A program made the position numbers and the translations under genes. 64,000 nt of DNA from an uncultured Gammaproteobacteria bacterium (GTDB taxonomy: Bacteria; Patescibacteriota; Patescibacteriia; Magasanikbacterales; UBA922): NCBI GenBank assembly GCA_964522405.1, contig CAZFTR010000001.1:116686-180685 (forward strand). Direction: 5' to 3'. Positions 10,663-44,450 of this stretch are shown here, piece after piece (position 1 is the stretch's first letter; the number at the start of each line of letters is the position of its first letter). The notes beneath the pieces were generated by a model, which was given only the letters and a program-made list of their open reading frames with translations, searched no databases and was not told the origin of the DNA.

Positions 10663-11133
10663 ATGTTTAAATCATCAGAACCTCAAATCTCAAAACAAGA
10701 TACACAAGCAAAATCTTCTTCTGATAGTGTTGAGACAGTAGTAGGGCCATCAGTGGTGGTGGAGGGTGATTTTTCTTCTGAGGGTAATATTTTAGTAAAA
10801 GGAACAGTTTCAGGAAATGTAAAAACAGCGCAACTGCTCACTGTTGAGGCTGGGGCAAAGATTTTGGCAAATGTAAAGGCACATGATGCTCTGATTTCCG
10901 GAGAAGTAAAAGGTAATGTCCGAGTAAATGAGAAGCTTGAACTAACAGAATCAGCAAGAATTAGAGGAGATATATCTTGTAAGGTTTTGGTTGTTGCCGG
11001 CGGAGCACTTTTACAAGGAAAAGTCGGTATGAAAGGAATTGAGATTGCAGGCTCTGGAGCAGAAAAGAAAAAAACTCCAAAAGCCAAACCGAGTAAATCT
11101 GTTTCTGATTTAGAGATCAAACCATCTTCATAA
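10663..11133 (+). CDS. Bactofilin-family cytoskeletal protein
   Basis: Repeating beta-helical pattern (VVEGDFSSEGNILVKGTVSGNV ... ISGEVKGNVRV ... IRGDISCKVLVVAGGALLQGKV) and a Lys/Pro-rich C-terminal tail. Confidence 0.7.
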   Translation: MFKSSEPQISKQDTQAKSSSDSVETVVGPSVVVEGDFSSEGNILVKGTVSGNVKTAQLLTVEAGAKILANVKAHDALISGEVKGNVRVNEKLELTESARIRGDISCKVLVVAGGALLQGKVGMKGIEIAGSGAEKKKTPKAKPSKSVSDLEIKPSS

Positions 11134-11177
11134 AATAGATTGATTCTATTTTATTATCATCTTTCTAAAGGATAGAT

Positions 11178-11939
11178 ATGTACGTATACCTATATGACAA
11201 TTTTCTCAAGCAAAAACGCTATGAGAATGTTTTGAAGTCAATTGAAACCAAATTGACTGATTATGGTATTGCTGGTAAGATTATCCGACTGCAAAATTTC
11301 ACTAATGCCGAGTGGGTAATAGAAGATGAAATTAGAAAAGGTGCCAAAACAGTAGTAATTGTGGGTAATGATGTTACTTTTGGACATGTTTTATCACGAG
11401 CAGCTGCAAGCAATGTAATTTTTGGATTTCTTCCGATAGGTCCGCAAAATTCTATTGCTGAAGTTCTTGGAATTCCCACTGATGAAACTGCTGCAGATGT
11501 TTTGGCAAGAAGAAGAAAAGTAAGACTTGATGTGGGTTGGTTTAACAATCGTTATTTTATTTCTCAGCTGTATATAGAGCCAAGTAATATTGCAGTTGAA
11601 TATGATGAGAAATTTAAAGTTTCCAGTAAAAGTAAAAAAATGGAATTAGTAGTTTGCAATCTCCAGCCTTTTCATTGGAAGAAAAAGGGTAAGGACAATG
11701 TAGTTCATCCGCAAGACGGTAAACTTGAGGCATTTCTACGGCCAATGGTAAAAACTAAGCTTTTTAGAAAAGCAGAATTTGAAGATCCAAGTATTTTTCC
11801 ATTTGAAGAAATGATAGTTAGCAGTAAAACTCCTTTTCCTGTAAAAGCAGATGGGAAATTATCCAAAGAGACAAAAATAACAATTAAGCTAGCCAAGAAG
11901 AGAATAAATATGATTGTTGGTGGAGCCAGGAAGTTTTAA
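11178..11939 (+). CDS. DAGK_cat / YegS-like lipid kinase-family protein
   Basis: VVIVGNDVTFGHVL (GGDGT-like) and LPIGPQNSIAEVLGIP (lP.GtgNdfar.lgip-like) motifs. Confidence 0.55.
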   Translation: MYVYLYDNFLKQKRYENVLKSIETKLTDYGIAGKIIRLQNFTNAEWVIEDEIRKGAKTVVIVGNDVTFGHVLSRAAASNVIFGFLPIGPQNSIAEVLGIPTDETAADVLARRRKVRLDVGWFNNRYFISQLYIEPSNIAVEYDEKFKVSSKSKKMELVVCNLQPFHWKKKGKDNVVHPQDGKLEAFLRPMVKTKLFRKAEFEDPSIFPFEEMIVSSKTPFPVKADGKLSKETKITIKLAKKRINMIVGGARKF

Positions 11940-11958: not shown

Positions 11959-12041
11959 GCGCGAGTGGTGGAACGGTAGACACGCAGGCTTGAGGGGCCT
12001 GTGCTCGCAAGGGTGTGGAGGTTCAAATCCTCTCTCGCGCA
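11959..12041 (+). tRNA. tRNA-Leu (anticodon GAG), type II with a long variable arm
   Basis: Hand-folded: acceptor GCGCGAG/CTCGCGC, 3-bp D stem, anticodon stem CAGGC/GCCTG with loop TTGAGGG, long variable arm, T arm GGAGG-TTCAAAT-CCTCT, discriminator A. No encoded CCA. Confidence 0.8.
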
Positions 12042-12097
12042 CAAAAAAAGCAAGGTTTCTGGCCTTGTTTTATTATTTACGAGATAAATTGGGAGTC

Positions 12098-12136
12098 GGG
12101 CGACGCGTCTGAGGGGAACCTCAGACGCGTCGCCAC
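12098..12136. repeat. Perfect 16-bp GC-rich hairpin (GGCGACGCGTCTGAGG-GGAA-CCTCAGACGCGTCGCC) at the distal edge of island 2
   Basis: Read directly; marks the AT/GC boundary next to the tRNA-Leu. Confidence 0.6.
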
Positions 12137-12422
12137 ACTCGCCGTCCTTGCCTGCGCTGTTGCGCAGACCCGCGTGGTTGGGGCGCCGTGCACCCCTTCC
12201 TTGCCTGGCCGCCGAAGCGACCTGTCGGTGCCCGGTATGGTACCGGAGCACTCCTGGCGTCGAAGCGCTCATCGTGGTGTCTCGCCGTTGCGATTCACCG
12301 GAGTCGGCGCGCTGGCGTGCGCCATTCTCGAGATGACCCTTGCAGTCGGTGCCGTCAGCAGGTGACGGCGGTTCCGTTGCCTTGAGCGATCATCTGTGCC
12401 CCCGAAGAGGCCTTCGGCGTGG

Positions 12423-13286
12423 CTACCAGCTGAAGCAGAAGTCGCTGCTCGTCGCCGTGTAGCCCGCCTCGTCGCAGCAGCCCGCGGTCACCCCGTTCGG
12501 GTTGTCGCCGCCCGCGCCGTAGTCGGTGTTCACGTCCTCGTTGGTCGCCGCCGTCACGTTCTCCGCCGCCGCGGTGGCCGTCTGGTTCAGGTTGTGCGGG
12601 AAGTCGCCCGTCGCAGCCGTCGCCGTGTTGGTCATGCCCGAGTTGCCAGTCTCCACCGTCTCGCCGCCGCCCGCGCCGTAGTCGGTGTTGCCCAGGTTGG
12701 CCTTGTTCGCGTCGAAGTCCGCCGTACCGCCGGTGTCGTTCGCCGCGTTCGCGCCGTAGTCGGTGTTCACCACCATCTCGATCTGGGTCGCGCCGTAGTC
12801 CACCAGGAAGGGGATGTCCACAGCCAGCGTGGTGTCCACCCGCATCAGGATCGCGGTCGCGCCGTGCTCGCCGTAGTTGTCCAGCATGGTCGCCCAGATC
12901 GCCGTCGCGTTCTCCGTCGCTGCACCCGCGTTGTCGTGCATCCACTGCCAGCCGTCGAAGGCCACCGTCTCGCGCGCCGCGCCGTAGTCGGTGTTGGTGC
13001 CCATGATGAGGTGCGCCAGCTCGTCGTCGGTCAGGGCCGCCTCCCGGTTCATGGCGAACCAGTTGTTGGCCGCGTCCAGCAGAACCCGGTTGCTGTTGCC
13101 GTCGTCGACGAAGGTCAACAGCAGGTTGCCGTTGAAGTCCACGTCCACCGTCAGGGTGGTGTGGGCCGGGGCGTCGACCTGATCGATGGTCGGCGTGTCC
13201 GGCTCGGCAGCCGCGATGCTGGTGGGCAGCACCAGCAGAAGCAGGACCGCGAATGCGGCCGTCAGGAACGAAAGTCTCCGTCTCAT
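12423..13286 (-). CDS. Secreted protein with six copies of an N(T)DYGA motif; high-GC codon usage
   Basis: N-terminal signal peptide (MRRRLSFLTAAFAVLLLLVLPTSIAAAEP). Repeated GTNTDYGAA, NTDYGANA, NTDYGAGG (x2), VDYGAT, DNYGEHGA. C-terminal Cys cluster CCDEAGY...FCFSW. RBS GGAGG sits 10 nt before the ATG. Third codon positions are almost all G/C, unlike the flanking genes. Confidence 0.7.
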   Translation of the reverse strand: MRRRLSFLTAAFAVLLLLVLPTSIAAAEPDTPTIDQVDAPAHTTLTVDVDFNGNLLLTFVDDGNSNRVLLDAANNWFAMNREAALTDDELAHLIMGTNTDYGAARETVAFDGWQWMHDNAGAATENATAIWATMLDNYGEHGATAILMRVDTTLAVDIPFLVDYGATQIEMVVNTDYGANAANDTGGTADFDANKANLGNTDYGAGGGETVETGNSGMTNTATAATGDFPHNLNQTATAAAENVTAATNEDVNTDYGAGGDNPNGVTAGCCDEAGYTATSSDFCFSW

Positions 13287-13351
13287 CTTAGGAATTCCTC
13301 CACAAGGTCATCAACTTCCCGCGCCAGGTTTGGTTCGGGATTGCATTATCC

Positions 13352-13380
13352 ATTATATGATTTTTTTTGAGAGTGTGCAA
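13352..13380 (-). promoter_or_regulatory. Consensus sigma70 promoter (TTGCAC-17-TATAAT) driving the secreted repeat protein
   Basis: Minus strand: -35 at 13375-13380, -10 at 13352-13357, 17-nt spacer, located in AT-rich DNA. Confidence 0.55.
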
Positions 13381-13481
13381 GTATTGTAAGAGAAAGCGAT
13401 TTTCCAACAATGAAATTTGTCAAATGATTTGTTTTTTCTTAACTGAATTTTTATTATTTGCTATAATGATAATATTAAAAA

Positions 13482-13870
13482 TTGAAAATTCAAGCATTGA
13501 GATTTCAATTAGAAGATTTTTTAAATTTTATGGATGAATATTCAACAGCTGGTCAAATTATGTATTGGCTAGTTATGCTCGCTCTCTATCTTTATCAGGG
13601 TTATGCATTTTTGATAATTGCCAAAAGAACAGGTACTGCCAATGGCTGGATGGCATTTATACCGATCCTAAATGTTTTTTTGATGCTAAGAATTGCTAAA
13701 AAGCCTCTATGGTGGTTTCTTTTGCTTTTAGTTCCTCTTATAAATATTATTTTTAATTTTGTTGCTTATTGGACTGGCAAGATCTCTGAATAAATCTCCA
13801 TGGTTTGGGATTTTATTGATGGTTCCAATTGTTAATTTAGTTGCTCTCGGGTATTTGGCTTTTAGTGAGA
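13482..13870 (+). pseudogene. Small multi-TM membrane protein gene interrupted by a frameshift near 13790
   Basis: The 103-aa ORF ends at 13793. The downstream +1-frame text translates to ...KSPWFGILLMVPIVNLVALGYLAFSEN*, a hydrophobic continuation typical of this small membrane-protein family. Confidence 0.45.
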
Positions 13871-13918: not shown

Positions 13919-13921
13919 ATG

Positions 13922-14318
13922 CCTTGTCCATTAAATAAGCCGAATTCTGTATCCTTGCAAGCAAGGTAATGATCATTTCTCTGGTTCCAGTGTTGCCACT
14001 AGAATCTAACGAGCTAACTTTTCGAATTCTGAAATTCAGAAAACGCTGCTCTTTCTCCAGGTAGGGTTTACCACCCTGACATAATGTCAGGTAGTATGGT
14101 AGCTTTTGACTCGAGATCAAAAACATCCATACTCTTTTCACCTTTCATTTTGCGAAGCAAAATTAGTATAGTCTCTGCGGCACTTTCCCGTCCATACTTG
14201 TCACCAAGCCGGAGGTGGGCGTTACCCACTACCATGACCCCGAAGAACTTCGGGGGGAGTTCGGACTTTCCTTCCAGCTCCCAAAAGGAGCCAGGCGATC
14301 ATTTATAATGAACAAGAC
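13922..14318 (-). ncRNA. rnpB: RNase P RNA (bacterial type)
   Basis: On the minus strand: GGAAGGAAAGTCCGAACTCC (CR-I/P4 5' strand), GGTGAAAAGAGTATGG, and ACAGAATTCGGCTTAT (CR-V/P4 3' strand). The 5' and 3' ends pair as P1 (GTCTTGTTCATTATAAAT with ATTTAATGGACAAG). Confidence 0.75.
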
Positions 14319-33219: not shown

Positions 33220-36200
33220 TTGCTGATTTTTATGTTTAAAAATCAAAATAGAAAATTAAAAACCTCATTGATAATACTGTTATCAAGTTTTGTTATTTTG
33301 GTTCCGGTTCTTGCCGGTTTACTAAAAATTGATCAGGCTCATGCTCAGGCCGCTGCAGCAGCAAAAGCAGCAGCAAAAGTTGCCACAGAAGCAGCATCAG
33401 GAGCAGCAAATTCAGCTCCGGCAGTGCCAACTCATGAGTTGAGTAGTGTTCCGAAGAAAATGCAAAAAATAGAAGATACTCTAGACGATACTTTTTTATC
33501 TACAGGACTTTCAGCTCTTATTAGTGGAGCTTCATATTTTTTAAACCGCCTTGCTTATGATGGTGCTAGGTGGATTGCTTCGGGTGGAAAAGGGCAGGGA
33601 GCACTTGCTTTTCAAGATGGATTTGGAGAGTACATCTTAAAAGTTGGAGGAGACAGTGTTGCTGATGCTGTTCAGCAGTTGGGAAATCCCTATGGATTAA
33701 ATCTCTGTAAACCCTCAAATTTAGATGTGCAGGTTTACCTGCAACTAGGATATAGAAAAGTTTATGATGGGCTTGGTGGAGAAGGTGGTCCTAAACCAAA
33801 ATGTTCATGGTCAGAGCTCAAGGATAAAATTGAATTTCAAACTTCAGGCGACGGAGTGCGATATTTTGGAGACACTATTGTCGAAGGTTTCCAAAACTCT
33901 TTTAGAGTTGAAGATAGTGATTTTGGAATTGCACTTGGAGCAGCTGGACAGCTAGACAGAATATATGCCCAAAAACAACAAGAAGCAGAGGGTGAACAAT
34001 TGGTTGGTGAAGGGTTTAAGCCACTTAAGAGTATGTTGTCTGGAAAAACTCTAACTCCGGCACAGATAATAAAAGAAGAAGCAAAATCTATTACTGCCAA
34101 ACATCAGGGTCAGATGACGGCTAATCAGATATCTGGAGTTTATGGCTCAGGAAGTATTGAGGCTCTGGTGGGTGCTGCTTCAATTTTTTTGACTACACTT
34201 ATATCTGATCTTTCCAAAAATATTTTAACTGATGGTTGGTTGACAGATCCTGGTTCAGGTGGAGGGGGTAGTTTATCTTCAAATACAGAAGTTGTAATCA
34301 ACGAATTTGCTTCAGCCATAAACCAAAATAGAAGAGCTGCAGAAAATGCCTTTAAATTTTTGTTTACAGCAGTTCCTGTTAAGCAGAGTTCCAGTTATCC
34401 GCTTTTGGATGATTTTGCCTCATGTCCTGATGATCCTGCTTTAAACCATCCTAAATTAACAAATTGTGTTATTGACCGAGCCTTTAGAGAAGCAATAGAT
34501 CGTGGAAACCAGGGGAGTAGTTTGACTATAAGAGAAGCCATGCTAAAGGAAAACGGAGAACTTCTCCACGGAGGTTGGCCTCTAATATCTCCTCTGAGAG
34601 AAGAAGAACATACAGAAGTAAAAGATTGTTATAGAAATGGATATTGCTACTCAAATATACAGAAATTGAGAAAAGCTCGTATCCTTCCTCTTGGTTTTGA
34701 GATCGCAGCCCTTCGTTCTGATCCGGATCAGCCCTGGACTCTTAAGCAGGTTGTAGATGGATTCAACGATTGTGCGGTTGATCCTGATTCTGGAAATATT
34801 GTCCAAAGTTCAAAAAAACCTTTTTGTCATTTGATTGATCCAAATTGGATTATACGCTTACCTGATCCGCGTTGTGAATCACTTGTTTATGGGCCAAATT
34901 TGATTTCCAATGCTGCGCCTACAAGACATAGTGAATGTGCTGATATTTCTACTTGTTTACTTGAAGATGAAAATGGCCAATGTATTGGTCAATATGGTTA
35001 TTGTCTAAAAGAAAAAAATGTCTGGAATATGCCGGGTCAATCTTGCCCTGCTCAGTTTAGCACTTGTGACACTTATACCAATACTAAGACTGGGAAAATA
35101 GAAAGCTTTTTATCAAGAACTGTAGACTATGATCAATGTACTAGTGATGCTGCTGGCTGTAGAGCATATAGTATTTACCAGGAAGACGGTGCATGGAGAA
35201 ATAGTAGTCAAACAGATGAGCTTTTAAAAACCAAAGGAGAGGCGCAAACCATGTATTTTGGAAAACTGGCAAGCCATGCAACTTGTCCTATTGATGTTGA
35301 TTTAAATGCTGATGGTTGTTCTGCATTTCTTCAGGTAACTTTTGACAGCGAAGTTGGTAATTATCAGAAAATAGCAGCTGCCACACCTCTTTATATGCAA
35401 AAGGCTCCAAATTATCTAGGTTGTTATGATACTGATTTATCTACCAAAGAAATTATAGATTGGCCAATTTCAGAAACTGATTTAACCCTTCTGACTGATA
35501 GACCTGAACAATGTGCAGACTATGCTCAGGTTTGTGTAGAAGATGAAGCAGGTTGTAGAAAATATCGCGCAGCTGAATCCGGAGTTCAAGACGTGGTTGG
35601 TATTGTGGGAGCAAATTCTTGTCCTGCTGAATGCGTAGGTTATGATACTTTCAAACAGGAAGAAAGTAATTTTGAACCTTCAATATTCCCAATGTATTTT
35701 ATTGCTGACGGTGTTGGGTCTAGAAGTTGCCCAGGACAGTATTCCAGCTGTTCAGAATTTACCAATATTGGCGCTGCCGGAGAAGGTGGAGAAGAGCTTG
35801 AGTATTTTGTTGATATTAAATATTGTGAAAAACCAGAAGAGGACAATGAAAAAACCTATTATTCTTGGGAAGGATCTGACAGTGCTGGATATGTTTTGAA
35901 AGTTCACAAAATGAAACAAATTGATCAAGAGGAATATACTTCTTATATTTTTAAAGTGGGTCAAGCAATTCAATTTAATCCTGGAGATAATTTAAGTTTT
36001 TATGAGATTGGATCACCGGCATATGCCAAAGATTCAGTAGAAAACTTAGAAGAATATTATCATGCTTGTAATGAGGAAAATTATAAGCAACTCATAAATG
36101 GAGAAAATCAGTTAGGAGATATAGACGAAGGTTGTGCTGCAATTTATGATAATGATGGAAATATTTATTATAGAATTTTATCAGAAACTGTAACTGTATC

Positions 36201-39200
36201 TGATCAATGTACACCTTATAGAAAAACTAATACTTATCTTGAATTGGATTCAGATTTAAATACTAGTGAACTTTGTTCATACAAATCAGGACTTTGGTCA
36301 GATGCTAATCTCAGTTGTGAGAGATGTTTCAATGGCGGAGAATATCTAGATGGGTCTTGTGTTTATTGGACTATTCCAAGTGAGTCTCTTTCATGTCAAG
36401 GTCCTGCAGGACAAGAAAATTTGTACAATGGTTGTCGAACTTATACTGGAAATGCAGTAAATGATCCTGTTCAGAAAATATTCTTTGATTTTGAACCTCA
36501 GCCATCTGATGATGATCCTGATGGTTTGAACAATGCCAAAGATGGTTGGTCTGTAGGAGAAATTACTCTTGACGCACAGCAAGTGGGACTTCATTCATTG
36601 CAAATTGATTCTGGTATTGTTGCTTTAGATGTGCCTGCTGAGATATTTACTGAGGATAAATGGTATGAATTAACTTTTTGGGCTAGAAGCGCTGTTGAAC
36701 AAAACCTAGTTGTGAAACTGATTCAGATTGCTCAGGATGTTGGCAATTTCAATTCTAATCCAAATATAGAAGGTGGGGAGATCCCAGTTAAAATAAATAC
36801 CAATTGGCAGGAATATAAATTAGGTCCGGTTCAATTTGCTGGAAGTACTGACTTGGAGGTGACGGCTATGTTCCAGGCAGTTTCTCTTGGGGTGAGTAGT
36901 GCTTATTCAATTGATAATGTTCGTATAGTGGAAGTTCCAAAATTTCACCGCATTAAAAATTCATGGCAACAAAAAGATACTGGTCCACTTGGTGAAGAGG
37001 TTGTTTTGGATGTTCCTTTGCTCTGTGACACTACACCTACTGATCCGTTCCCAGGTGAACATCTTGGCTGTAGTGCATATACGGACAAGACTGCAGATCC
37101 TGATCTGCCAGTCTATACTTCTGGATTTGAAAAATTGTGCAGAGTCAAAGCAGAAGGTTGTCGTCCTATAGTAGATACTTTTAATACAGTGAGCCATGAA
37201 GATCCGGGCAATCAAGATAATACCTTAACTCATGTATACAATGCATGGTGTGAGGAATTGGCAGAGGACATTTGTCAGGTTAAACACATTGATCAGGTAT
37301 TGGGAGAATGTCAGGTTGGAAAAGGTAAAAATGGTTGTTATATTCCAAAAATTGTCATTCCTGCCGGTGTGGAATTCAAAGATTTGTTAAATACCACAGA
37401 TTCAACAGTGGTTGTACCTGCTGATACAGAGGAAACTACACCAATTTATCTAACCTACAATACTGAGTATGCATGTTCTTCCAGCTTTATGGGTTGTAAA
37501 GCTGGTGCTCTTGAAGAGCAATCTCTACCAACAGAAAATCAAATTTCCTATGAGTTTAGTGAGCAAATGGTCTATGATAATCCGACTTTTTATGAACAAA
37601 CTCTTTGTAAATCAGAGGAGTTAGCTTGTGAAGAATACCGACATGGTAACAGTTTGGCTTACTTCAAAGATCCATATCTTACTGGTTCCAAACTGTGTAA
37701 ATATCGAGAAAATTTAGACTCAGGTGAGAACTATGGATGGTTTATGGAGGGTATAGGAAAATGTACTGGAACAGAAGATCTCTGTAGTTCAAGTGATGAT
37801 TGTTCTGAGGATGTTGCTTGTGATCTTGAGATAGATGTTCCTTGTTATGATAATTATCTGCAGGCTGGTGGAGAAAATGGCATTTGGTCAAATGATGCCT
37901 TATTTCATCCAATAACAGGAGAGAGTTTGTATGATGGTTTTGTTGGATTATGTGAATCACAATATAATAATTGTACTGAATATTTGGATCCACAGGATAG
38001 TTCTGGAGCTGATCCAGATGGTAAACCTTATTACGTTATAGCAGACAACCAATTGATTTCCGGTCAGTCTGAGTGTGCCGGACAGGTTAGTTTGCACGAG
38101 GGTTGTGTCTTGTTTGATCAAACAGACAACCCAAATAAGTTTTATGACAGTGAAGCAAGTTATAAGAAAAGCGCTGCTACAGATAATCCAAAATATCAAC
38201 CGGTTACACCAATTACCAGTGGTAATCTGGACGCAAATGTAGTATTGAAAGTTGAAGCTAATAGAAGCTGTAGCGAATGGTTGTCATGTAAAAATAGTAT
38301 CAAGATTACTGATGAAAATGGAATTCCAAAAAATGTTTGTAATGAATTCAAAGCTTGCAAGGAATCAGATGGTTCAGCGGGCTGTGCTAATTGGGCTGTT
38401 GATTCTGCTTACGAAACAGAGCCTTTGACTCAAGAGAAATATATTAAGCGTGATACATCCTGGTATGGAGAAGAATACACAGGATATTCACTGTTTGATA
38501 AATATCAGATTAGTAGTATTGCTTATGTTTCTGTAGAAGACGAGCCATTTTCATATATGGCTTACGAATTACATCCTGGAGTTGCTCCAAATAATAACTG
38601 TATAGGACAAGCTGCTTGGAGTAAATGTGGTTTTGATAATGGTGGTAGATGTCATAATGAAAAATGTATCTATACTATGAGCGGTCCTTTTTTACCTGAC
38701 TCTGATACAAAAGATGAAATCGTGGCAGAGTTAGAGGGCGGAACTTGTAAGGCTTTCCCAGAGGATAGTTCACCATATGATTTTAGTTTTGCAGAGCAAC
38801 CAACGCTTCATGAGACTGCCTATGATGACGGGCCTGATAGATATACTTTTGAAACCAAGAAAAAAGGATATGGTGGAGCAAATATTTGTCAGAGTGGAGA
38901 GAATTGCTCCTGTGAGTACAAGAAAATAGCTTATGGTAATGGTACAACTGATTACTTGAGCTATAGTGAAGATAAATATGCCAAAGGTGTTTGTACGGGA
39001 GGAGATTTTGCTCAGAAATCTTGTAGAATAAATTCTGACTGTGGTGCGGGTGGTTCTTGTAGTAGGATCACGAGTATTGAAACTCATATAGGTTTGAGGG
39101 GTCTGTGTATGGAATATGATTTGAGCAGACCAATAGACAAAGATAAGGATATTTACCCGTGTCTCACTTGGTTGCCGGTGGATACTGCGGCGACAGTTCT

Positions 39201-42200
39201 TGATCCATATAACAATGATCCAAAAGCAGGTTATCTACCACGGCTTGATGCCAGTGTTACTCTAGCCAATGGTTTTAAGAGTGAGTATGGACAAGTTTAT
39301 TGTAGCGAGGCATCAGGAAATGCCAAGGGTGCCTATGACATAGATGGATACAGAGAGATAACAAATGCAATTAACCAATCTACAGTTCCAAAATTTTCAG
39401 CCATATGTGATGGTAATCCAGATACTTTTGTTTGTAACAAGGACCTGTATAGTAATATGTTCAATGAGTATGGAGATTATATCTTTGATGAGAAAAAATG
39501 GGTAAGTATTACTGGTAATCCAGAGATAGCTTATGATGTTGGTGATGCAAATGCAGAATTTCCATTTACAGAAAAACTGCCTGTATTGCGTGATCCATTT
39601 AATGCTGGTTGGGGTGATAATTTTTCTTCTTTTAATACTTGGGAAGATGTGGAAGGATCCAAAACCACTATAATGCAAGGATTTTTTGAATGGCAAACTC
39701 GTCCACCGGCTACACCTGGTTCAGATGTGCTTACTGGCGCTAGTTTGTATCCTGATGATGACCAGAACAAGAATATATATAATTATCCGGATTTTGTCTA
39801 CTCCTTGGTTCAGCAATGGGCCTGGCATGGTGGTATGTATGGCAGAGGGTTGGCAGAAACCAAGGAATCCAAGAATATTATTTTGAATACCAAGAGTATA
39901 TCTGATCTGTGTGGAGATTTGATAGGTAAGGGGCAGCTATATACCGGTTGTGCAGACCTCTATAATTTTGCTGTAAATGCTCCAACTAAAACTCAGCAGG
40001 TTGAGTTATTAAAAGCTCTTCTTAACGCTCGAGTCAGTAGAATTTTAGCTGAAGATACCGAGGAAATTAAGCAGCAAGAAATAGTCAATCCAAATTCAAC
40101 TGTATTATTTACCTCAGCTCTTTATTTTAGGGATTACTTATATACTTCTTTGAAAAAAGTAGAAGAGATTGCGCCTGTAAAGGGTCTTGAAAGTAAAGGT
40201 CAGGATAAGAATAAATGGTATCTAGAAGATGAAGAGATGACCGAAGACTTGAATGGGGATGGTAAGGTTGATTATAAAGATATCACTGATCCTGAGTCTA
40301 TATTTTTGAGAGTAAGTTATGAACCGGTAGATTTTCATAGTTATACTCCGGGAACAATTGAAAAGGTCTTTGATTTTACAGGCGGCAGTAATAAAAGCAC
40401 AGATAAAGATGATCCAAATAATTATTTTTACAAGAGCTCAATTTGGGGGCATGCTACCAAGAAACTACGTGGTTATCATCCGGTCTTTTACAATTATGAA
40501 GCAGCAATAGAGGTTGTAGAAGATGAGATCAGTAAATTGCACTATGGACCAATGATGGCTCCAAATGGGATTGAAAGAGTTCTTACTATTGATTTTGATA
40601 CTCTTAATAATAGTCTGCCGCTTGAGTCAATCACAGCAAATGATGGGGTTTTGTACGATCTTAACTATTATTCAGAGGCTGTAAAAGGAGTTTATGTTTT
40701 TAAGGTAAGCCCAAGAACAGGTCCTAGAGCAGGTTGGTCACGATATATTATTATATCTATGGAAGACGGGGGATTTAGCGAAGATAAACCAGTGACTGAT
40801 TTGAGTCTTGATTTCTTTGTGGAGCTTCTTGACGAGTGGGCTGGAGATTCAAAATCCAAGTGGTCAAAGGGTGTGGATTGGATTGACGAGGATTTGGGAA
40901 ATAGATCACTTATTTGGGTCTGGGCTGATTTTGATGAGAAAGGTAATATGTCCGATGATTTCATAAAATCAAACTACCAAGCTTGGTATCAAAATACTAA
41001 AAGTATTTTTGTCTACAGTTCAGAGTTCAATGCCAAAGATGGAAAAACTCCTTTCTTGGCAGTTGTAGCAGAGACACATCCAAGATGTACAGAATTCCAG
41101 GTTGTTTATGATAGTGAAACCGAAGGGCTGGGCGGTTCAACTAACAAGGCTTGGACTGATAGAGTTTGGAATTATTCTAATTATCAACCGGGAACTACCT
41201 TTTTCTTTGGTAATAAATTAACTAAGCCGGCCTTTTCTCGACCTTTTGGTTCATTGCAATTAACTGCTGATTCTTTTGAAGGTACAAATGCATCAGGTTT
41301 GAGTTGGGAAGATGCCAGACGCAGATACACCTTTAGATCACCTGAGTTTGATGGTATACCTTATTCATGTGACGCAACAGCTCTAGAGTCAGAGCAGACC
41401 GCATTCAATCAAGGTAACTTTTTTAATGAAGGTTTGATGTATGATAATCCAGATTTTATTGGGCTTATAGAGTGGGGTGAACAAAAATGTATAGCGTCTT
41501 ATGGTGGAAATAATGAACTATATAACACCATGTCTTTTGTTGAGGCTGAAAATGGTATAGATATGCTATCTCAATTATTTAAAAAATCATTTACCTCTAT
41601 TAGAGCAAATGAACAGGGAGAAAATAAATTTGGTATTAAAGGAGCAATTGATCCACAGAATTCACTCTTTGTGAAGGAAGTTGGATTTGATGGTTCATCT
41701 ACTGCTGAGGCAGGTCTAATTCCTCCACAAATATATTCACTAAATCCAACCACTTGTTATGATTATACCGGTGGTAAAATTAATTGTACTATTGGAGAAG
41801 CAGATAATATAACCATAAACAGAAGAAATTTCATGTTAGAAGATTATGATGATGATGGATTTTATGATGAAGATCTAAATGGTGATGACTTGCCTGATCT
41901 GATAATTGCAGAAAATTCATTTACTGCTGTTGCTCATTTCTTTGCTTATGCTGATCATAACCGCATGCCTATTCGAAGAGTAATGGTTGATTGGGGAGAT
42001 GGAGATATTTCAAATCAAGATAGAAAGGGAATGTATAAGAATAGAAAACCATATTGTATTGGTGTTGGTAATGAGCAGAGTCCAGATATTGGAGAGTGTT
42101 CTCAGTCTGAGCAATTAACTTGTCTCAAAGATTCAGATTGTCCTTTGGCAGGAGAAACTTGTGATTTGAATGCAGCCAGGCATTTTGGAAATTCAGATAG

Positions 42201-42624
42201 AGCTTGTGTGCCGGAATATTTTGAATTTATGCATGGTTATTCTTGTTCGCAGTTTGATCTTCAATTGAGTGAGCTTGATAATGTTGATTTCTTGGAATAT
42301 ATGATTGAGTTTGATCAGCTTGATGAGTATCTGGGTAGGCCGGACGTAGAGCAAACTCTTAAGAATAGGGGTTATACTCCAGAAGTAAATACCAAGGTCT
42401 GTGTATTCCAGCCAAAAGTTCAGATATTGGATAATTGGGGGTGGTGTAATGGAACGTGTGATTATAAAGGTCCTGGAAGTGGGTGCTATTCCGAAGATGA
42501 GCTTAGTGGAGATTTTTGCGAAGTGAGTTCAGACAAGCCTTGGACAGGTTATGGTGAAGAGACAGTAGACAGTCTGGGTAATACGATTAGAAGTGGTTCA
42601 ATTATAGTAATTCCGACATCATAA
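33220..42624 (+). CDS. Giant (3134 aa) cysteine-rich predicted cell-surface protein
   Basis: Single uninterrupted 9.4-kb ORF with an N-terminal TM/signal (LIILLSSFVILVPVLAGLL), an Ala-rich linker, then a Cys- and Asp/Gly/Asn/Tyr-rich extracellular sequence with no catalytic motifs. Confidence 0.7.
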   Translation: MLIFMFKNQNRKLKTSLIILLSSFVILVPVLAGLLKIDQAHAQAAAAAKAAAKVATEAASGAANSAPAVPTHELSSVPKKMQKIEDTLDDTFLSTGLSALISGASYFLNRLAYDGARWIASGGKGQGALAFQDGFGEYILKVGGDSVADAVQQLGNPYGLNLCKPSNLDVQVYLQLGYRKVYDGLGGEGGPKPKCSWSELKDKIEFQTSGDGVRYFGDTIVEGFQNSFRVEDSDFGIALGAAGQLDRIYAQKQQEAEGEQLVGEGFKPLKSMLSGKTLTPAQIIKEEAKSITAKHQGQMTANQISGVYGSGSIEALVGAASIFLTTLISDLSKNILTDGWLTDPGSGGGGSLSSNTEVVINEFASAINQNRRAAENAFKFLFTAVPVKQSSSYPLLDDFASCPDDPALNHPKLTNCVIDRAFREAIDRGNQGSSLTIREAMLKENGELLHGGWPLISPLREEEHTEVKDCYRNGYCYSNIQKLRKARILPLGFEIAALRSDPDQPWTLKQVVDGFNDCAVDPDSGNIVQSSKKPFCHLIDPNWIIRLPDPRCESLVYGPNLISNAAPTRHSECADISTCLLEDENGQCIGQYGYCLKEKNVWNMPGQSCPAQFSTCDTYTNTKTGKIESFLSRTVDYDQCTSDAAGCRAYSIYQEDGAWRNSSQTDELLKTKGEAQTMYFGKLASHATCPIDVDLNADGCSAFLQVTFDSEVGNYQKIAAATPLYMQKAPNYLGCYDTDLSTKEIIDWPISETDLTLLTDRPEQCADYAQVCVEDEAGCRKYRAAESGVQDVVGIVGANSCPAECVGYDTFKQEESNFEPSIFPMYFIADGVGSRSCPGQYSSCSEFTNIGAAGEGGEELEYFVDIKYCEKPEEDNEKTYYSWEGSDSAGYVLKVHKMKQIDQEEYTSYIFKVGQAIQFNPGDNLSFYEIGSPAYAKDSVENLEEYYHACNEENYKQLINGENQLGDIDEGCAAIYDNDGNIYYRILSETVTVSDQCTPYRKTNTYLELDSDLNTSELCSYKSGLWSDANLSCERCFNGGEYLDGSCVYWTIPSESLSCQGPAGQENLYNGCRTYTGNAVNDPVQKIFFDFEPQPSDDDPDGLNNAKDGWSVGEITLDAQQVGLHSLQIDSGIVALDVPAEIFTEDKWYELTFWARSAVEQNLVVKLIQIAQDVGNFNSNPNIEGGEIPVKINTNWQEYKLGPVQFAGSTDLEVTAMFQAVSLGVSSAYSIDNVRIVEVPKFHRIKNSWQQKDTGPLGEEVVLDVPLLCDTTPTDPFPGEHLGCSAYTDKTADPDLPVYTSGFEKLCRVKAEGCRPIVDTFNTVSHEDPGNQDNTLTHVYNAWCEELAEDICQVKHIDQVLGECQVGKGKNGCYIPKIVIPAGVEFKDLLNTTDSTVVVPADTEETTPIYLTYNTEYACSSSFMGCKAGALEEQSLPTENQISYEFSEQMVYDNPTFYEQTLCKSEELACEEYRHGNSLAYFKDPYLTGSKLCKYRENLDSGENYGWFMEGIGKCTGTEDLCSSSDDCSEDVACDLEIDVPCYDNYLQAGGENGIWSNDALFHPITGESLYDGFVGLCESQYNNCTEYLDPQDSSGADPDGKPYYVIADNQLISGQSECAGQVSLHEGCVLFDQTDNPNKFYDSEASYKKSAATDNPKYQPVTPITSGNLDANVVLKVEANRSCSEWLSCKNSIKITDENGIPKNVCNEFKACKESDGSAGCANWAVDSAYETEPLTQEKYIKRDTSWYGEEYTGYSLFDKYQISSIAYVSVEDEPFSYMAYELHPGVAPNNNCIGQAAWSKCGFDNGGRCHNEKCIYTMSGPFLPDSDTKDEIVAELEGGTCKAFPEDSSPYDFSFAEQPTLHETAYDDGPDRYTFETKKKGYGGANICQSGENCSCEYKKIAYGNGTTDYLSYSEDKYAKGVCTGGDFAQKSCRINSDCGAGGSCSRITSIETHIGLRGLCMEYDLSRPIDKDKDIYPCLTWLPVDTAATVLDPYNNDPKAGYLPRLDASVTLANGFKSEYGQVYCSEASGNAKGAYDIDGYREITNAINQSTVPKFSAICDGNPDTFVCNKDLYSNMFNEYGDYIFDEKKWVSITGNPEIAYDVGDANAEFPFTEKLPVLRDPFNAGWGDNFSSFNTWEDVEGSKTTIMQGFFEWQTRPPATPGSDVLTGASLYPDDDQNKNIYNYPDFVYSLVQQWAWHGGMYGRGLAETKESKNIILNTKSISDLCGDLIGKGQLYTGCADLYNFAVNAPTKTQQVELLKALLNARVSRILAEDTEEIKQQEIVNPNSTVLFTSALYFRDYLYTSLKKVEEIAPVKGLESKGQDKNKWYLEDEEMTEDLNGDGKVDYKDITDPESIFLRVSYEPVDFHSYTPGTIEKVFDFTGGSNKSTDKDDPNNYFYKSSIWGHATKKLRGYHPVFYNYEAAIEVVEDEISKLHYGPMMAPNGIERVLTIDFDTLNNSLPLESITANDGVLYDLNYYSEAVKGVYVFKVSPRTGPRAGWSRYIIISMEDGGFSEDKPVTDLSLDFFVELLDEWAGDSKSKWSKGVDWIDEDLGNRSLIWVWADFDEKGNMSDDFIKSNYQAWYQNTKSIFVYSSEFNAKDGKTPFLAVVAETHPRCTEFQVVYDSETEGLGGSTNKAWTDRVWNYSNYQPGTTFFFGNKLTKPAFSRPFGSLQLTADSFEGTNASGLSWEDARRRYTFRSPEFDGIPYSCDATALESEQTAFNQGNFFNEGLMYDNPDFIGLIEWGEQKCIASYGGNNELYNTMSFVEAENGIDMLSQLFKKSFTSIRANEQGENKFGIKGAIDPQNSLFVKEVGFDGSSTAEAGLIPPQIYSLNPTTCYDYTGGKINCTIGEADNITINRRNFMLEDYDDDGFYDEDLNGDDLPDLIIAENSFTAVAHFFAYADHNRMPIRRVMVDWGDGDISNQDRKGMYKNRKPYCIGVGNEQSPDIGECSQSEQLTCLKDSDCPLAGETCDLNAARHFGNSDRACVPEYFEFMHGYSCSQFDLQLSELDNVDFLEYMIEFDQLDEYLGRPDVEQTLKNRGYTPEVNTKVCVFQPKVQILDNWGWCNGTCDYKGPGSGCYSEDELSGDFCEVSSDKPWTGYGEETVDSLGNTIRSGSIIVIPTS

Positions 42625-42666: not shown

Positions 42667-42697
42667 TTTAAAATATTTTTGATTTTTTTAATAAAAA

Positions 42698-42798
42698 GGG
42701 CCGTGCCGAAGCGCGTCCACGAGTTCACCGAAGTGAGACTTGTGGGCGCGCTTGGCTTGGCGTGCGACTGCTGAGAAAACGAGTTCGACTGCCGTGTA
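42698..42798 (-). other. Conserved GC-rich structured 3' element, copy A (nested about 60-nt helix with a CGAA tetraloop)
   Basis: gccgaagcgcg / ccacgag / tcac-CGAA-gtga / cttgtgg / cgcgcttggc nested pairing; about 75 nt identical to copy B at 43657-43761. Confidence 0.5.
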
Positions 42799-43326
42799 CT
42801 ACGGCTTGAGCTCCAGCGTGTAGTCGGGGCCGTCGTTGTCGAAGATCGTGATCTCGATTCCCTCGGAGGTCTTGATGACCTCGTAGTACCAGCCTGCCGG
42901 CTTGTCGAGGGGGAAGACCACAGCGGCCTCCTCGGGGTTGTCGTGCCAGGTGATCAGCGGACCGGTGATCATGGGCTTCTTGCCGAAGCCGATCATGGTC
43001 ACCTCACAGGTGTGACCACCGAACCCGTTCTCGATCATCTTGGTCGTGATCTCCTCGCCCCAGCCCTTGAAGTGCTTCCACTTGCCCGCGATGTTCGGGC
43101 AGATGTCCACCACGGGGATGGGCTCAGGGGCAGGCTCTTCTTCCGGGGTGGGCTCTTCAGGTCGCGGGATCGTGTCCGGCTCGACGAACCGGGGCTGTTG
43201 GGCTGTGTCTTCTGGGATCTGATCTCGGTTAGTGCTCCGAGGGTAGTTGGAGCTACAGCTGGTAAAAAGAAAAGCCACGAGCGTGGCCACGAGAATGAGG
43301 ATGTTTTTCCTCTCCATGGTGGCCAC
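42799..43326 (-). CDS. Lipoprotein paralog A with a conserved C-terminal domain; high-GC codons
   Basis: Lipobox LFTSC, Pro/Glu-rich linker, conserved block VVDICPNIAGKWKHFKGWGEEI...GFGGHTCEV...WHDNPE...GWYYEV.KTSEGIEIT. RBS AAGGAGGTG upstream. Confidence 0.7.
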   Translation of the reverse strand: MATMERKNILILVATLVAFLFTSCSSNYPRSTNRDQIPEDTAQQPRFVEPDTIPRPEEPTPEEEPAPEPIPVVDICPNIAGKWKHFKGWGEEITTKMIENGFGGHTCEVTMIGFGKKPMITGPLITWHDNPEEAAVVFPLDKPAGWYYEVIKTSEGIEITIFDNDGPDYTLELKP

Positions 43327-43500
43327 CTCCTTGCAGTAGCAGCCGGAGCTATAGTGGAATTTCCACTACACTTCTAGCTACCACTAGCAGGAGTTTTTTG
43401 TCGCACGCTATAGATCTTGCCTTTTGGCTAGGTTTAGCCAAGCAGACAAAGATATTGAAAAGAGCTTTTAGTCATCAAAGACTGATAAATATTAGACTAT
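43327..43500 (-). promoter_or_regulatory. Conserved 5' leader, copy A, with palindromes (TAGTGGAA-A-TTCCACTA; GCTAGTGGTAGC; TTGGCTAAACCTAGCCAA) and an upstream TTGACA-17-TCTAAT promoter-like site
   Basis: Nearly identical to 44278-44450. The palindromes were read directly; the promoter call is weaker (the -10 is non-consensus). Confidence 0.45.
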
Positions 43501-43586
43501 ATTTTTGTAATTTTGTCAAGTTTTCTATAGTAAAATAAAACTATTAGAAATGGTCAAATTAGGGTAATCCTTGTTTTTCAAATTTA

Positions 43587-43616
43587 AACAAAAAATGACC
43601 TGGTGGGTCATTTTTT
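43587..43616. terminator. Bidirectional terminator, copy B (AAAAAATGACC-tggtg-GGTCATTTTTT)
   Basis: Same stem as copy A but with a different loop. Confidence 0.6.
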
Positions 43617-43656
43617 GTTTAAGTAATTTTTCACATTTTTTAAAAAATCATTTAAG

Positions 43657-43761
43657 GGGCCGTGCCGAAGCGCGTCCACGAGTTCACCGAAGTGAGACTT
43701 GTGGGCGCGCTTGGCTTGGCGTGCGACTGCGAGGAAAAAACGAGAGTTCGACTGCCGTGTA
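43657..43761 (-). other. Conserved GC-rich structured 3' element, copy B
   Basis: See copy A. Confidence 0.5.
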
Positions 43762-44277
43762 CTACGGCTTGAGCTCGGCCCAGATGTCGGGCTTGGCCTC
43801 GTTGTCGAATCGCGTGATCTCGATCCCCTCGGAGGTCTTGACGACCTCGTAGTACCAGCCCACCGGAGCCGGAATCGGGAAGACCACGGCGGTCTTCTCG
43901 GGGTTGTCGTGCCAGGTTGAAGCCGGACCGGGGAACATCGGCTTCTTGCCGAAGCCCGTGATGGTGACCTCGCAGGTGTGGCCACCGAACCCGTCCTCGA
44001 TCATCTCGGTCACGATCTCCTCACCCCAGCCCTTGAAGTTTTTGTACTTGCCCGCGATGTTCGGGCAGATGTCCACCACGGGGGTGGACTCTTCGGGGGC
44101 AGGATCCGCGGGCTTGTCGAGCCGCGGGGTCTCGACCGGCTCGACGAACCGGGGTTCCTGTGCGGCGTCTTCCGGGACGTAGTCCCGATCTCCCCCACGC
44201 TGAGGGGTGAAGCCGCAACCGGTGGAAAGCAAAGCCACGAGCGTGGCGACCATGAGCAGATTGCTCTTCTTCATCAT
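43762..44277 (-). CDS. Lipoprotein paralog B (about 65-70% identical to A); high-GC codons
   Basis: Lipobox LSTGC, Pro-rich linker, and the same conserved C-terminal domain as copy A. Confidence 0.7.
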   Translation of the reverse strand: MMKKSNLLMVATLVALLSTGCGFTPQRGGDRDYVPEDAAQEPRFVEPVETPRLDKPADPAPEESTPVVDICPNIAGKYKNFKGWGEEIVTEMIEDGFGGHTCEVTITGFGKKPMFPGPASTWHDNPEKTAVVFPIPAPVGWYYEVVKTSEGIEITRFDNEAKPDIWAELKP

Positions 44278-44450
44278 GGCGCCACCTCCTTGCAGTAGCA
44301 GCCGGAGCTATAGTGGAATTTCCACTACACTTCTAGCTACCACTAGCAGGAGTTTTTTGTCGCACGCTATAGATCTTGCCTTTTGGCTAGGTTTAGCCAA
44401 GCAGACAAAGATATTGAAAAGAGCTTTTAGTCATCAAAGACTACTATCCA
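44278..44450 (-). promoter_or_regulatory. Conserved 5' leader, copy B
   Basis: See copy A. Confidence 0.45.

Follow-up and report, generated by a model that had tools for sequence, protein, structure and literature searches.

The locus described here lies in a 64,000-nt window (positions 116,686 to 180,685) of contig CAZFTR010000001.1, to which all coordinates below refer. It comprises an intact tRNA-Leu(GAG) gene, a GC-rich segment of 1,248 bp carrying one gene for a 287-aa acidic protein with repeated NTDYGA motifs, a small DUF5684 gene and the RNase P RNA gene. The host, an uncultured ultra-small bacterium, was identified from 80 syntenic loci as Candidatus Magasanikbacteria, within the candidate phyla radiation (CPR, Patescibacteria). 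The GC-rich segment is foreign, recent and contiguous with native DNA, and it has neither a recombinase nor a duplicated attachment (att) site. The following features were assigned, with the supporting evidence in brackets:

11959-12042, plus strand: tRNA-Leu(GAG), left landmark of the variable site (ARAGORN, Rfam; adjoins the DAGK-like gene in most of the 80 related loci)
12043-12091, no strand: native AT-rich spacer with a bidirectional terminator (terminator scan; Logan contigs L083 and L084 cross it into the hairpin)
12092-13339, no strand: inserted GC-rich segment (composition, change point, absence from the equivalent site in relatives)
12093-12140, minus strand: terminal hairpin of the segment (inverted repeat, fold energy)
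12141-12422, minus strand: GC-rich non-coding 3' flank of the gene (no three-base periodicity, several hairpins)
12423-13286, minus strand: gene for the 287-aa acidic NTDYGA-motif protein, stop codon included (open reading frame, third-position GC, motifs)
12513-12995, minus strand: region with four exact and two degenerate NTDYGA motifs (direct-repeat family, motif table)
13206-13286, minus strand: codons 1-27, putative Sec-type signal peptide (hydropathy; cleavage site inferred from the -3/-1 rule)
13287-13339, minus strand: 5' leader within the GC-rich segment, carrying GGAGG (sequence, change point)
13352-13380, minus strand: promoter-like site in native AT-rich DNA (promoter scan, sequence)
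13532-13793, plus strand: AT-rich, divergent gene for a DUF5684 small membrane protein (Pfam DUF5684)
13920-14315, minus strand: RNase P RNA (class A), right landmark of the variable site (Rfam RF00010, 161.9 bits)

The tRNA gene was recovered by ARAGORN and by Rfam (53.1 bits). Measured in 300-nt windows, GC content rises from 0.33-0.38 to 0.64-0.69 within approximately 12090-13340 and then falls back to 0.28-0.34, and a two-change-point maximum-likelihood fit placed the right edge of the GC-rich DNA at 13339. The segment as a whole has a GC content of about 0.66-0.69, compared with 33% for the genome. An earlier sequence-only reading of this DNA had recognized alien GC-rich DNA near the tRNA, and both the composition and the empty site in about 24 relatives, described below, confirm this. 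It had also placed that DNA directly after the tRNA, which is not the case: the GC-rich DNA starts about 50 nt past the tRNA end, beyond the tRNA's own intrinsic terminator (stem 12047-12071, with T-runs on either strand in a scan of both strands), and the AT-rich spacer parts the two. The 4-bp sequence ATTG is found at both outer edges of the segment (12088-12091 and 13340-13343), to which we give little weight.

At its left edge the segment closes in a hairpin with a 16-bp perfect stem (22 bp with the outer pairs), a 4-nt loop and no U-tract; its fold energy is -44.4 kcal/mol (z = -7.8). The adjoining 282-nt 3' flank is GC-rich, lacks codon periodicity and forms hairpins with UUCG/GNRA-type loops. 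Folded in the mRNA sense, the region 12043-12425 reaches -183 kcal/mol (z = -7.4). No Rfam family matched the 3' flank at E up to 5, no Pfam match was found in any of its frames, and the terminal hairpin had no match in IMG/VR.

The open reading frame (ORF) for the 287-aa protein is intact across 864 nt and shows three-base periodicity along its entire length. GC contents at the first, second and third codon positions (GC1/GC2/GC3) are 0.60/0.48/0.95, while the GC3 of host genes, taken from eight genes of the window, is 0.22-0.27. The codon usage is thus as alien as had been stated. The long ORFs in other frames (324 aa on the plus strand, 196 aa on the minus strand) are side effects of the high GC content. 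In one Logan contig carrying the gene (L223:261-851, corresponding to 12355-12945, minus strand), the gene caller picked an out-of-frame 196-aa ORF; this explains why not every contig with the gene has the 287-aa protein among its recorded products.

A textbook promoter and a ribosome-binding site (RBS), both in native AT-rich DNA, had been proposed for this gene, and each claim held in part. The hexamers TTGCAC-17-TATAAT are present in AT-rich DNA at 13380-13352 (minus strand), with TATAAT located 12 nt outside the right segment boundary, and a promoter scan also calls the site as TGCACA-16-TATAAT (10/12). However, the -35 hexamer is weak, with 3-4 of 6 positions matching. The Shine-Dalgarno sequence GGAGG (13301-13297) does lie 10 nt ahead of the ATG, but within the 53-nt leader and hence inside the GC-rich segment. 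The change point at 13339 separates the -10 box from the RBS, which assigns the promoter-like site to the host DNA and the RBS to the foreign DNA. Transcription is predicted to start a few nucleotides before the segment boundary. A further promoter-like site (13439-13467) was called by the scan for the divergent DUF5684 gene.

The N-terminus of the protein reads MRRR, LSFLTAAFAVLLLLVLP, TSIAAA|EP and contains a 17-residue hydrophobic core. Residues 7-25 are the sole strong hydrophobic segment (maximum Kyte-Doolittle hydropathy 2.35). Judged by inspection and hydropathy, with cleavage after IAAA derived from the -3/-1 rule, this N-terminus fits a Sec-type signal peptide in its predicted basic n-region, hydrophobic core and small residues at -3/-1. 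The mature part would comprise 260 aa, of which 40 are acidic and 5 basic; its calculated pI is about 4.05, and 60% of its residues are Ala, Thr, Asp, Asn or Gly. Only three cysteines occur (positions 270, 271 and 284), and the C-terminus ends in DFCFSW. There are six [DN]YG motifs, comprising four exact NTDYGA copies and the degenerate VDYGAT and DNYGEHGA. The exact copies (minus strand, 12513-12530, 12672-12689, 12750-12767 and 12978-12995) use identical codons over 18-25 nt, and because they are identical as 18 nt of DNA they go far beyond chance. The signal peptide, the six repeats and the CC...C.SW tail of the earlier description are therefore all borne out by hydropathy, motifs and cysteine positions.

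That description had found no recognizable repeat family, and searches of Pfam, NCBIfam, PHROGs, PDB and sequence clusters likewise came back empty. No profile for RTX/HemolysinCabind, BNR/Asp-box, TSP3, dockerin or ice-nucleation repeats was matched in Pfam and NCBIfam at E up to 10, the only match at that threshold being a sub-threshold one to DUF5008. Neither the protein nor its N-terminal half yielded anything above noise in PHROGs or among PDB sequences. A 13-residue period of the beta-solenoid or ice-nucleation type was tried and rejected, as autocorrelation gave no lag-13 signal and only z = 2.7 at lag 26. A precursor of a ribosomally synthesized and post-translationally modified peptide was rejected as well: the islet holds a single gene, its neighbors are the tRNA, the DUF5684 gene and RNase P RNA, and the protein has a Sec-type signal peptide. 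From its sequence we infer that the product is probably an exported, extracellular acidic repeat protein. Its likeliest role, which we propose only tentatively and with low confidence, is that of an envelope-associated binding protein for divalent cations or a partner-cell surface.

Comparison with related genomes shows that the segment is an addition to an otherwise conserved locus. The DAGK-like protein encoded at 11178-11939 retrieves 80 syntenic loci at 60-79% identity, nearly all labelled Candidatus Magasanikbacteria or Patescibacteria, in which the gene order is DAGK-like gene, tRNA-Leu(GAG), RNase P RNA, Bac_transf sugar transferase. With RNase P RNA placed in the relatives by nhmmer, the tRNA and RNase P RNA lie 18-192 nt from each other at about 24 of the related loci, compared with 1,877 nt in the window. 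These loci represent the empty site, which the sequence-only reading had proposed looking for. The GC-rich segment has no blastn or tblastx similarity in any of the 80 related loci, so relatives hold no ameliorated copy of it. A reconstructed empty site could be aligned to relatives over the tRNA only, because the intergenic DNA is too diverged.

Other relatives hold 0.3-9.8 kb of unrelated cargo between the same landmarks, including riboflavin-synthase-like genes, a restriction-modification pair, radical-SAM genes and GC-rich single genes (L067, L027, L037 and L048). Within this lineage, the tRNA-Leu(GAG)/RNase P RNA site is genuinely a hot spot. The idea of a tRNA integration hot spot therefore stands as far as the variable site is concerned, but not in its mechanism: the insertion lies past the terminator, and neither an integrase nor an att copy was found. 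By Pfam, no integrase, transposase or reverse transcriptase occurs among the ORFs between 3.3 and 20.8 kb, and no recombinase in any frame of the segment. With up to 3 mismatches tolerated, two 20-nt probes taken from the 3' end of the tRNA matched only the tRNA itself in 64 kb, so the suspected att-like direct repeats are absent from the window. A single repeat connects the tRNA end with the far side. It is an inverted match of 24 nt at 71%, contains many A-runs and is treated here as chance.

Several occupants of this site in relatives deserve description. In L022 (10834-12107), a GC-rich (0.58) element abuts the tRNA-Leu(GAG) 3' end without a spacer and encodes a large-serine-recombinase-like ORF (Pfam Recombinase and Zn_ribbon_recom); the contig ends inside the element. 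The GC-rich gene of L067 (11307-12161) encodes one of 128 hypothetical proteins (each about 284 aa) of a family that spans Parcubacteria, Kaiserbacteria, Nomurabacteria and other CPR bacteria, with identity up to 89%. Members of this family (L067, L218-L222) are GC-enriched over their flanks in 4/4 distinct contexts (GC3 0.50-0.82) and have no tie to tRNA genes. The gene seems to be mobile among CPR genomes, which implies that the GC-rich islets of these genomes have more than one source.

The islet of L027 (JBDRSF010000014.1, approximately 11050-11700), at the same tRNA-Leu(GAG) site, contains a 149-aa signal-peptide ORF (11100-11549, GC3 0.88). It resembles the window's segment in its native AT-rich upstream DNA, its own strong GGAGG-type RBS, its signal-peptide ORF and its GC-rich, hairpin-rich 3' flank. 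In contrast, it has the opposite orientation, its protein is shorter and lacks detectable similarity to the 287-aa protein, and a canonical U-tract terminator lies inside the islet. The DUF5684 gene of the window (stretch 13482-13793) is missing from the site in 80/80 related loci by tblastn, which means that the hot spot received at least two separate insertions.

The continuity of segment and flanks was assessed against Logan assemblies, which were produced by a different assembler (runs SRR8146441, SRR8146440 and SRR31802803). The exact 287-aa protein is on record both from NCBI (187-kb contig) and from these assemblies. A full-text literature search with the three run accessions came back empty. 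The matching Logan contigs cover the window as follows:

L083: 10860-12116, 0 mismatches
L084: 10924-12117, 0 mismatches
L001: 12095-15156, 0 mismatches
L223: 12095-20842, 0 mismatches
L002: 12198-13466, 0 mismatches

Each AT/GC junction lies inside single independent Logan contigs, and the doubt about contiguity that the earlier reading had allowed for was thus not borne out at either junction. Every Logan contig breaks within the hairpin 12093-12140, where the two sides overlap by an exact, GC-rich 22 nt. The break is explained by the 16-bp perfect palindromic stem of -44 kcal/mol.

No relative or donor of the gene was found. A word-indexed search of 5.8 billion clusters and an exhaustive phmmer search of 1.84 billion representatives each returned only the 287-aa protein itself. 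Plasmids and phages, searched by tblastn and blastn, yielded no relative, and neither did JGI/ENA metagenome contigs or IMG/VR when scanned with peptide patterns. When DNA was scanned for pairs of DYGA-encoding 11-mers separated by 52-82 nt, the matches listed comprised unrelated repeat proteins and, as the single carrier of NTDYGAG among them, a metagenomic RsgI_M-PepSY lipoprotein. This lipoprotein (L128:7260-8834, also in L132 and L135) has RsgI_M and PepSY domains and tandem C-terminal NTDYGAGSDGVTDYG repeats. The two proteins share the NTDYGAG heptapeptide, repeated in the lipoprotein in an exported acidic Gly/Thr/Asp-rich tail. However, the resemblance ends with the motif (BLASTP gave 25 bits and E = 0.001, and the pair had been selected post hoc), the 287-aa protein has neither an RsgI_M nor a PepSY domain, and its irregular motif spacing differs from the regular 15-mer repeats of the lipoprotein. 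An actinobacterium-like donor would fit the GC3 of 0.95, the strong GGAGG and the terminator hairpin that lacks a U-tract, but this is no more than a hint.

Further GC-rich islets occur in the same window. The second (42,690-44,400) is a tandem duplication with a unit of approximately 960 bp that includes AT-rich promoter/terminator DNA. Its two lipoprotein genes (42799-43326 and 43762-44277, minus strand; GC3 0.84 and 0.87) have only each other as relatives in 5.8 billion clusters. The lipoproteins share 67% amino-acid identity in the coding regions versus 88-92% identity in the non-coding flanks, which suggests fast or diversifying protein evolution. Their third-position differences are mostly G/C versus A/T, and this indicates ongoing AT-ward decay. 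On the scale set by this islet, the 287-aa gene, with its GC3 of 0.95, is the youngest arrival. The lipoprotein islet is like the inserted segment in its high GC3, exported products, lack of outside relatives and bracketing by native AT-rich promoter/terminator DNA. It differs in having a Cys lipobox and no NTDYGA motifs, in being partly ameliorated and duplicated in place, and in the absence of an adjoining tRNA. A 3,134-aa Cys-rich ORF with an N-terminal hydrophobic segment (33220-42624) ends immediately upstream of this islet. A third GC-rich stretch (about 0.6; positions 30-300) lies upstream of tyrS and is cut by the window start; a short minus-strand ORF begins near 302.

Related loci also carry GC-rich DNA at another position. 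A KAS-III-like gene (ACP_syn_III_C; GC 0.60-0.64) is found in L063 (6175-7524), L035 (6445-7659) and approximately 10 other related loci, between a small toxin-like gene and a histidine kinase. At this position the window has AT-rich genes for nitroreductase-like, ELFV-dehydrogenase-like, ThiF-like and alpha/beta hydrolase proteins, together with one for a 498-aa protein with no Pfam match.

Taken together, the segment is best read as a single gene that came recently from an unsampled high-GC bacterium, has not been ameliorated, and now sits in a variable intergenic site of a Magasanikbacteria genome, where it is presumably read from a host promoter. The arrival is dated as recent by the lack of amelioration. 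The incoming fragment would have comprised one complete gene with its own RBS and its own structured 3' flank closing in a strong hairpin. DNA uptake followed by illegitimate or microhomology-mediated recombination may have brought it in; alternatively, it could be a larger integrated element that deletion has reduced. Transcription would begin at the AT-rich promoter-like site of the host, 12 nt outside the boundary, and proceed into the foreign leader. The foreign hairpin, the native bidirectional terminator or both would stop it, and the native terminator would also shield the tRNA from antisense transcription. The product would then be exported by the Sec pathway, its signal peptide cut after IAAA, and the acidic Ala/Thr/Asp/Asn/Gly-rich mature protein would act outside the cell.

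Several points weigh against this interpretation. Contiguity over the hairpin comes from the deposited assembly and the exact 22-nt Logan overlap, and no single Logan contig spans it. The absence of any donor or relative from all collections is odd for a transfer that has kept a GC3 of 0.95. Promoter-like hexamers are frequent in the AT-rich DNA of this region (8 in 2.5 kb versus 1.9 in shuffles). AlphaFold2 run without an alignment was uninformative, with a predicted local distance difference test score (pLDDT) of 36 for the full protein and 33 for residues 28-182. Expression, export and function of the protein are all predictions.

Alternative origins of the segment were weighed against the same evidence. 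An ancient, vertically inherited gene of odd composition is the least credible of them and can practically be dismissed, given the empty site in about 24 relatives and the lack of tblastx or blastn similarity in 80 loci. Amelioration erodes foreign GC3 over time, and a GC3 of 0.95 cannot persist where that of the genome is 0.24. An assembly chimera or contamination, in which a high-GC fragment was misjoined into a CPR contig, would account for the extreme composition jump and for the breaks of all Logan contigs inside the hairpin. It is nevertheless highly improbable: both junctions lie in single contigs of separate runs made by a different assembler with 0 mismatches, the contigs flanking the break share the exact 22-nt overlap, and the palindromic stem explains the break. 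A hairpin-dependent cassette (integron attC-like or with an IS200/IS605-type palindrome), or a reverse-transcribed mRNA reaching roughly from leader to terminator, is also very unlikely, even though the segment holds exactly one promoter-less gene from the leader ahead of the ATG to the -44 kcal/mol hairpin and has ATTG at both edges. No integron integrase, TnpA or reverse transcriptase lies in the 17 kb examined, and no attC-like or other RNA/DNA family scored. Inspection revealed no RYYYAAC/GTTRRRY core sites at the boundaries, as would mark an integron cassette. As for an IS200/IS605-type element, the hairpin is present at one end only, the window contains no other copy, and no transposase was found. 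The L027 islet, moreover, runs past its own terminator, and the 4-bp repeat is weak evidence.

Two further alternatives accept the foreign origin. The gene could be cargo left by an integrase-driven element at tRNA-Leu(GAG) that later lost its integrase and one att site; we consider this rather unlikely. Integration linked to tRNA genes is well established, and the serine-recombinase element of L022 (GC 0.58) abuts the same tRNA without a spacer. In the window, however, 50 nt of native DNA including the tRNA terminator precede the segment, no tRNA 3'-end copy exists in 64 kb, no frame of the 3' flank contains a recombinase fragment, and the segment has no similarity to the L022 element. Somewhat more plausible, and a real though minor possibility, is an inert passenger, that is, a foreign and very recent fragment, neutral or slightly harmful, without purposeful expression and bound for loss. 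The complete lack of amelioration, the occurrence in one population only (three runs with identical sequence), the lack of relatives that could indicate selection and the fact that CPR genomes take up DNA all agree with such a passenger. Against it, the ORF is intact over 864 nt, has its own RBS at an ideal distance and is oriented behind a promoter-like site. The islets in the same genome and in L027 encode exported proteins in the same layout, which looks like selective retention, and the identical sequence recurs in a run of much later accession number.

Horizontally acquired islets are a well-known class of event, and the gene itself is an orphan encoding an exported protein. Islands and transferred genes account for up to 13% of Patescibacteria genomes, where most transfers are CPR-to-CPR and not recent, and recent ones from other phyla are rare (PMC12455944). 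Like the tRNA-linked genomic islands of Patescibacteria (PMC12455944), the segment has deviant composition beside a tRNA, is absent from relatives and carries accessory exported cargo. In contrast to them, it measures 1.25 kb with one gene, has no integrase or att duplication and sits beyond the terminator, not in the tRNA 3' end. The donor in this case was also clearly outside the AT-rich CPR, whereas the reported CPR transfers are mostly CPR-to-CPR. The odd points are that the donor stays invisible despite the lack of amelioration and that GC-rich islets with exported orphan proteins recur in the lineage.

We regard the transfer from a high-GC bacterium as an unusually clean, very recent cross-phylum gain by a CPR bacterium, with a single gene, verified junctions, an empty site and no integration machinery. 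At least three GC-rich islets lie within 64 kb. The products of the ones that were examined are exported proteins, none with a relative among approximately 15 billion proteins. A speculative extension, to which we assign a low likelihood, is that the islets of the window and of related Magasanikbacteria are DNA captured from the high-GC partner of an episymbiont and kept for fast-evolving exported proteins of the cell-cell interface. If this were true, the NTDYGA protein would be the first of a new acidic surface-binding family, and unameliorated islets would serve as tags identifying CPR hosts. The donor, if found, might point to the physical partner of this lineage. The recurrence of such islets hints that foreign DNA serves these reduced genomes as a source of new surface proteins.

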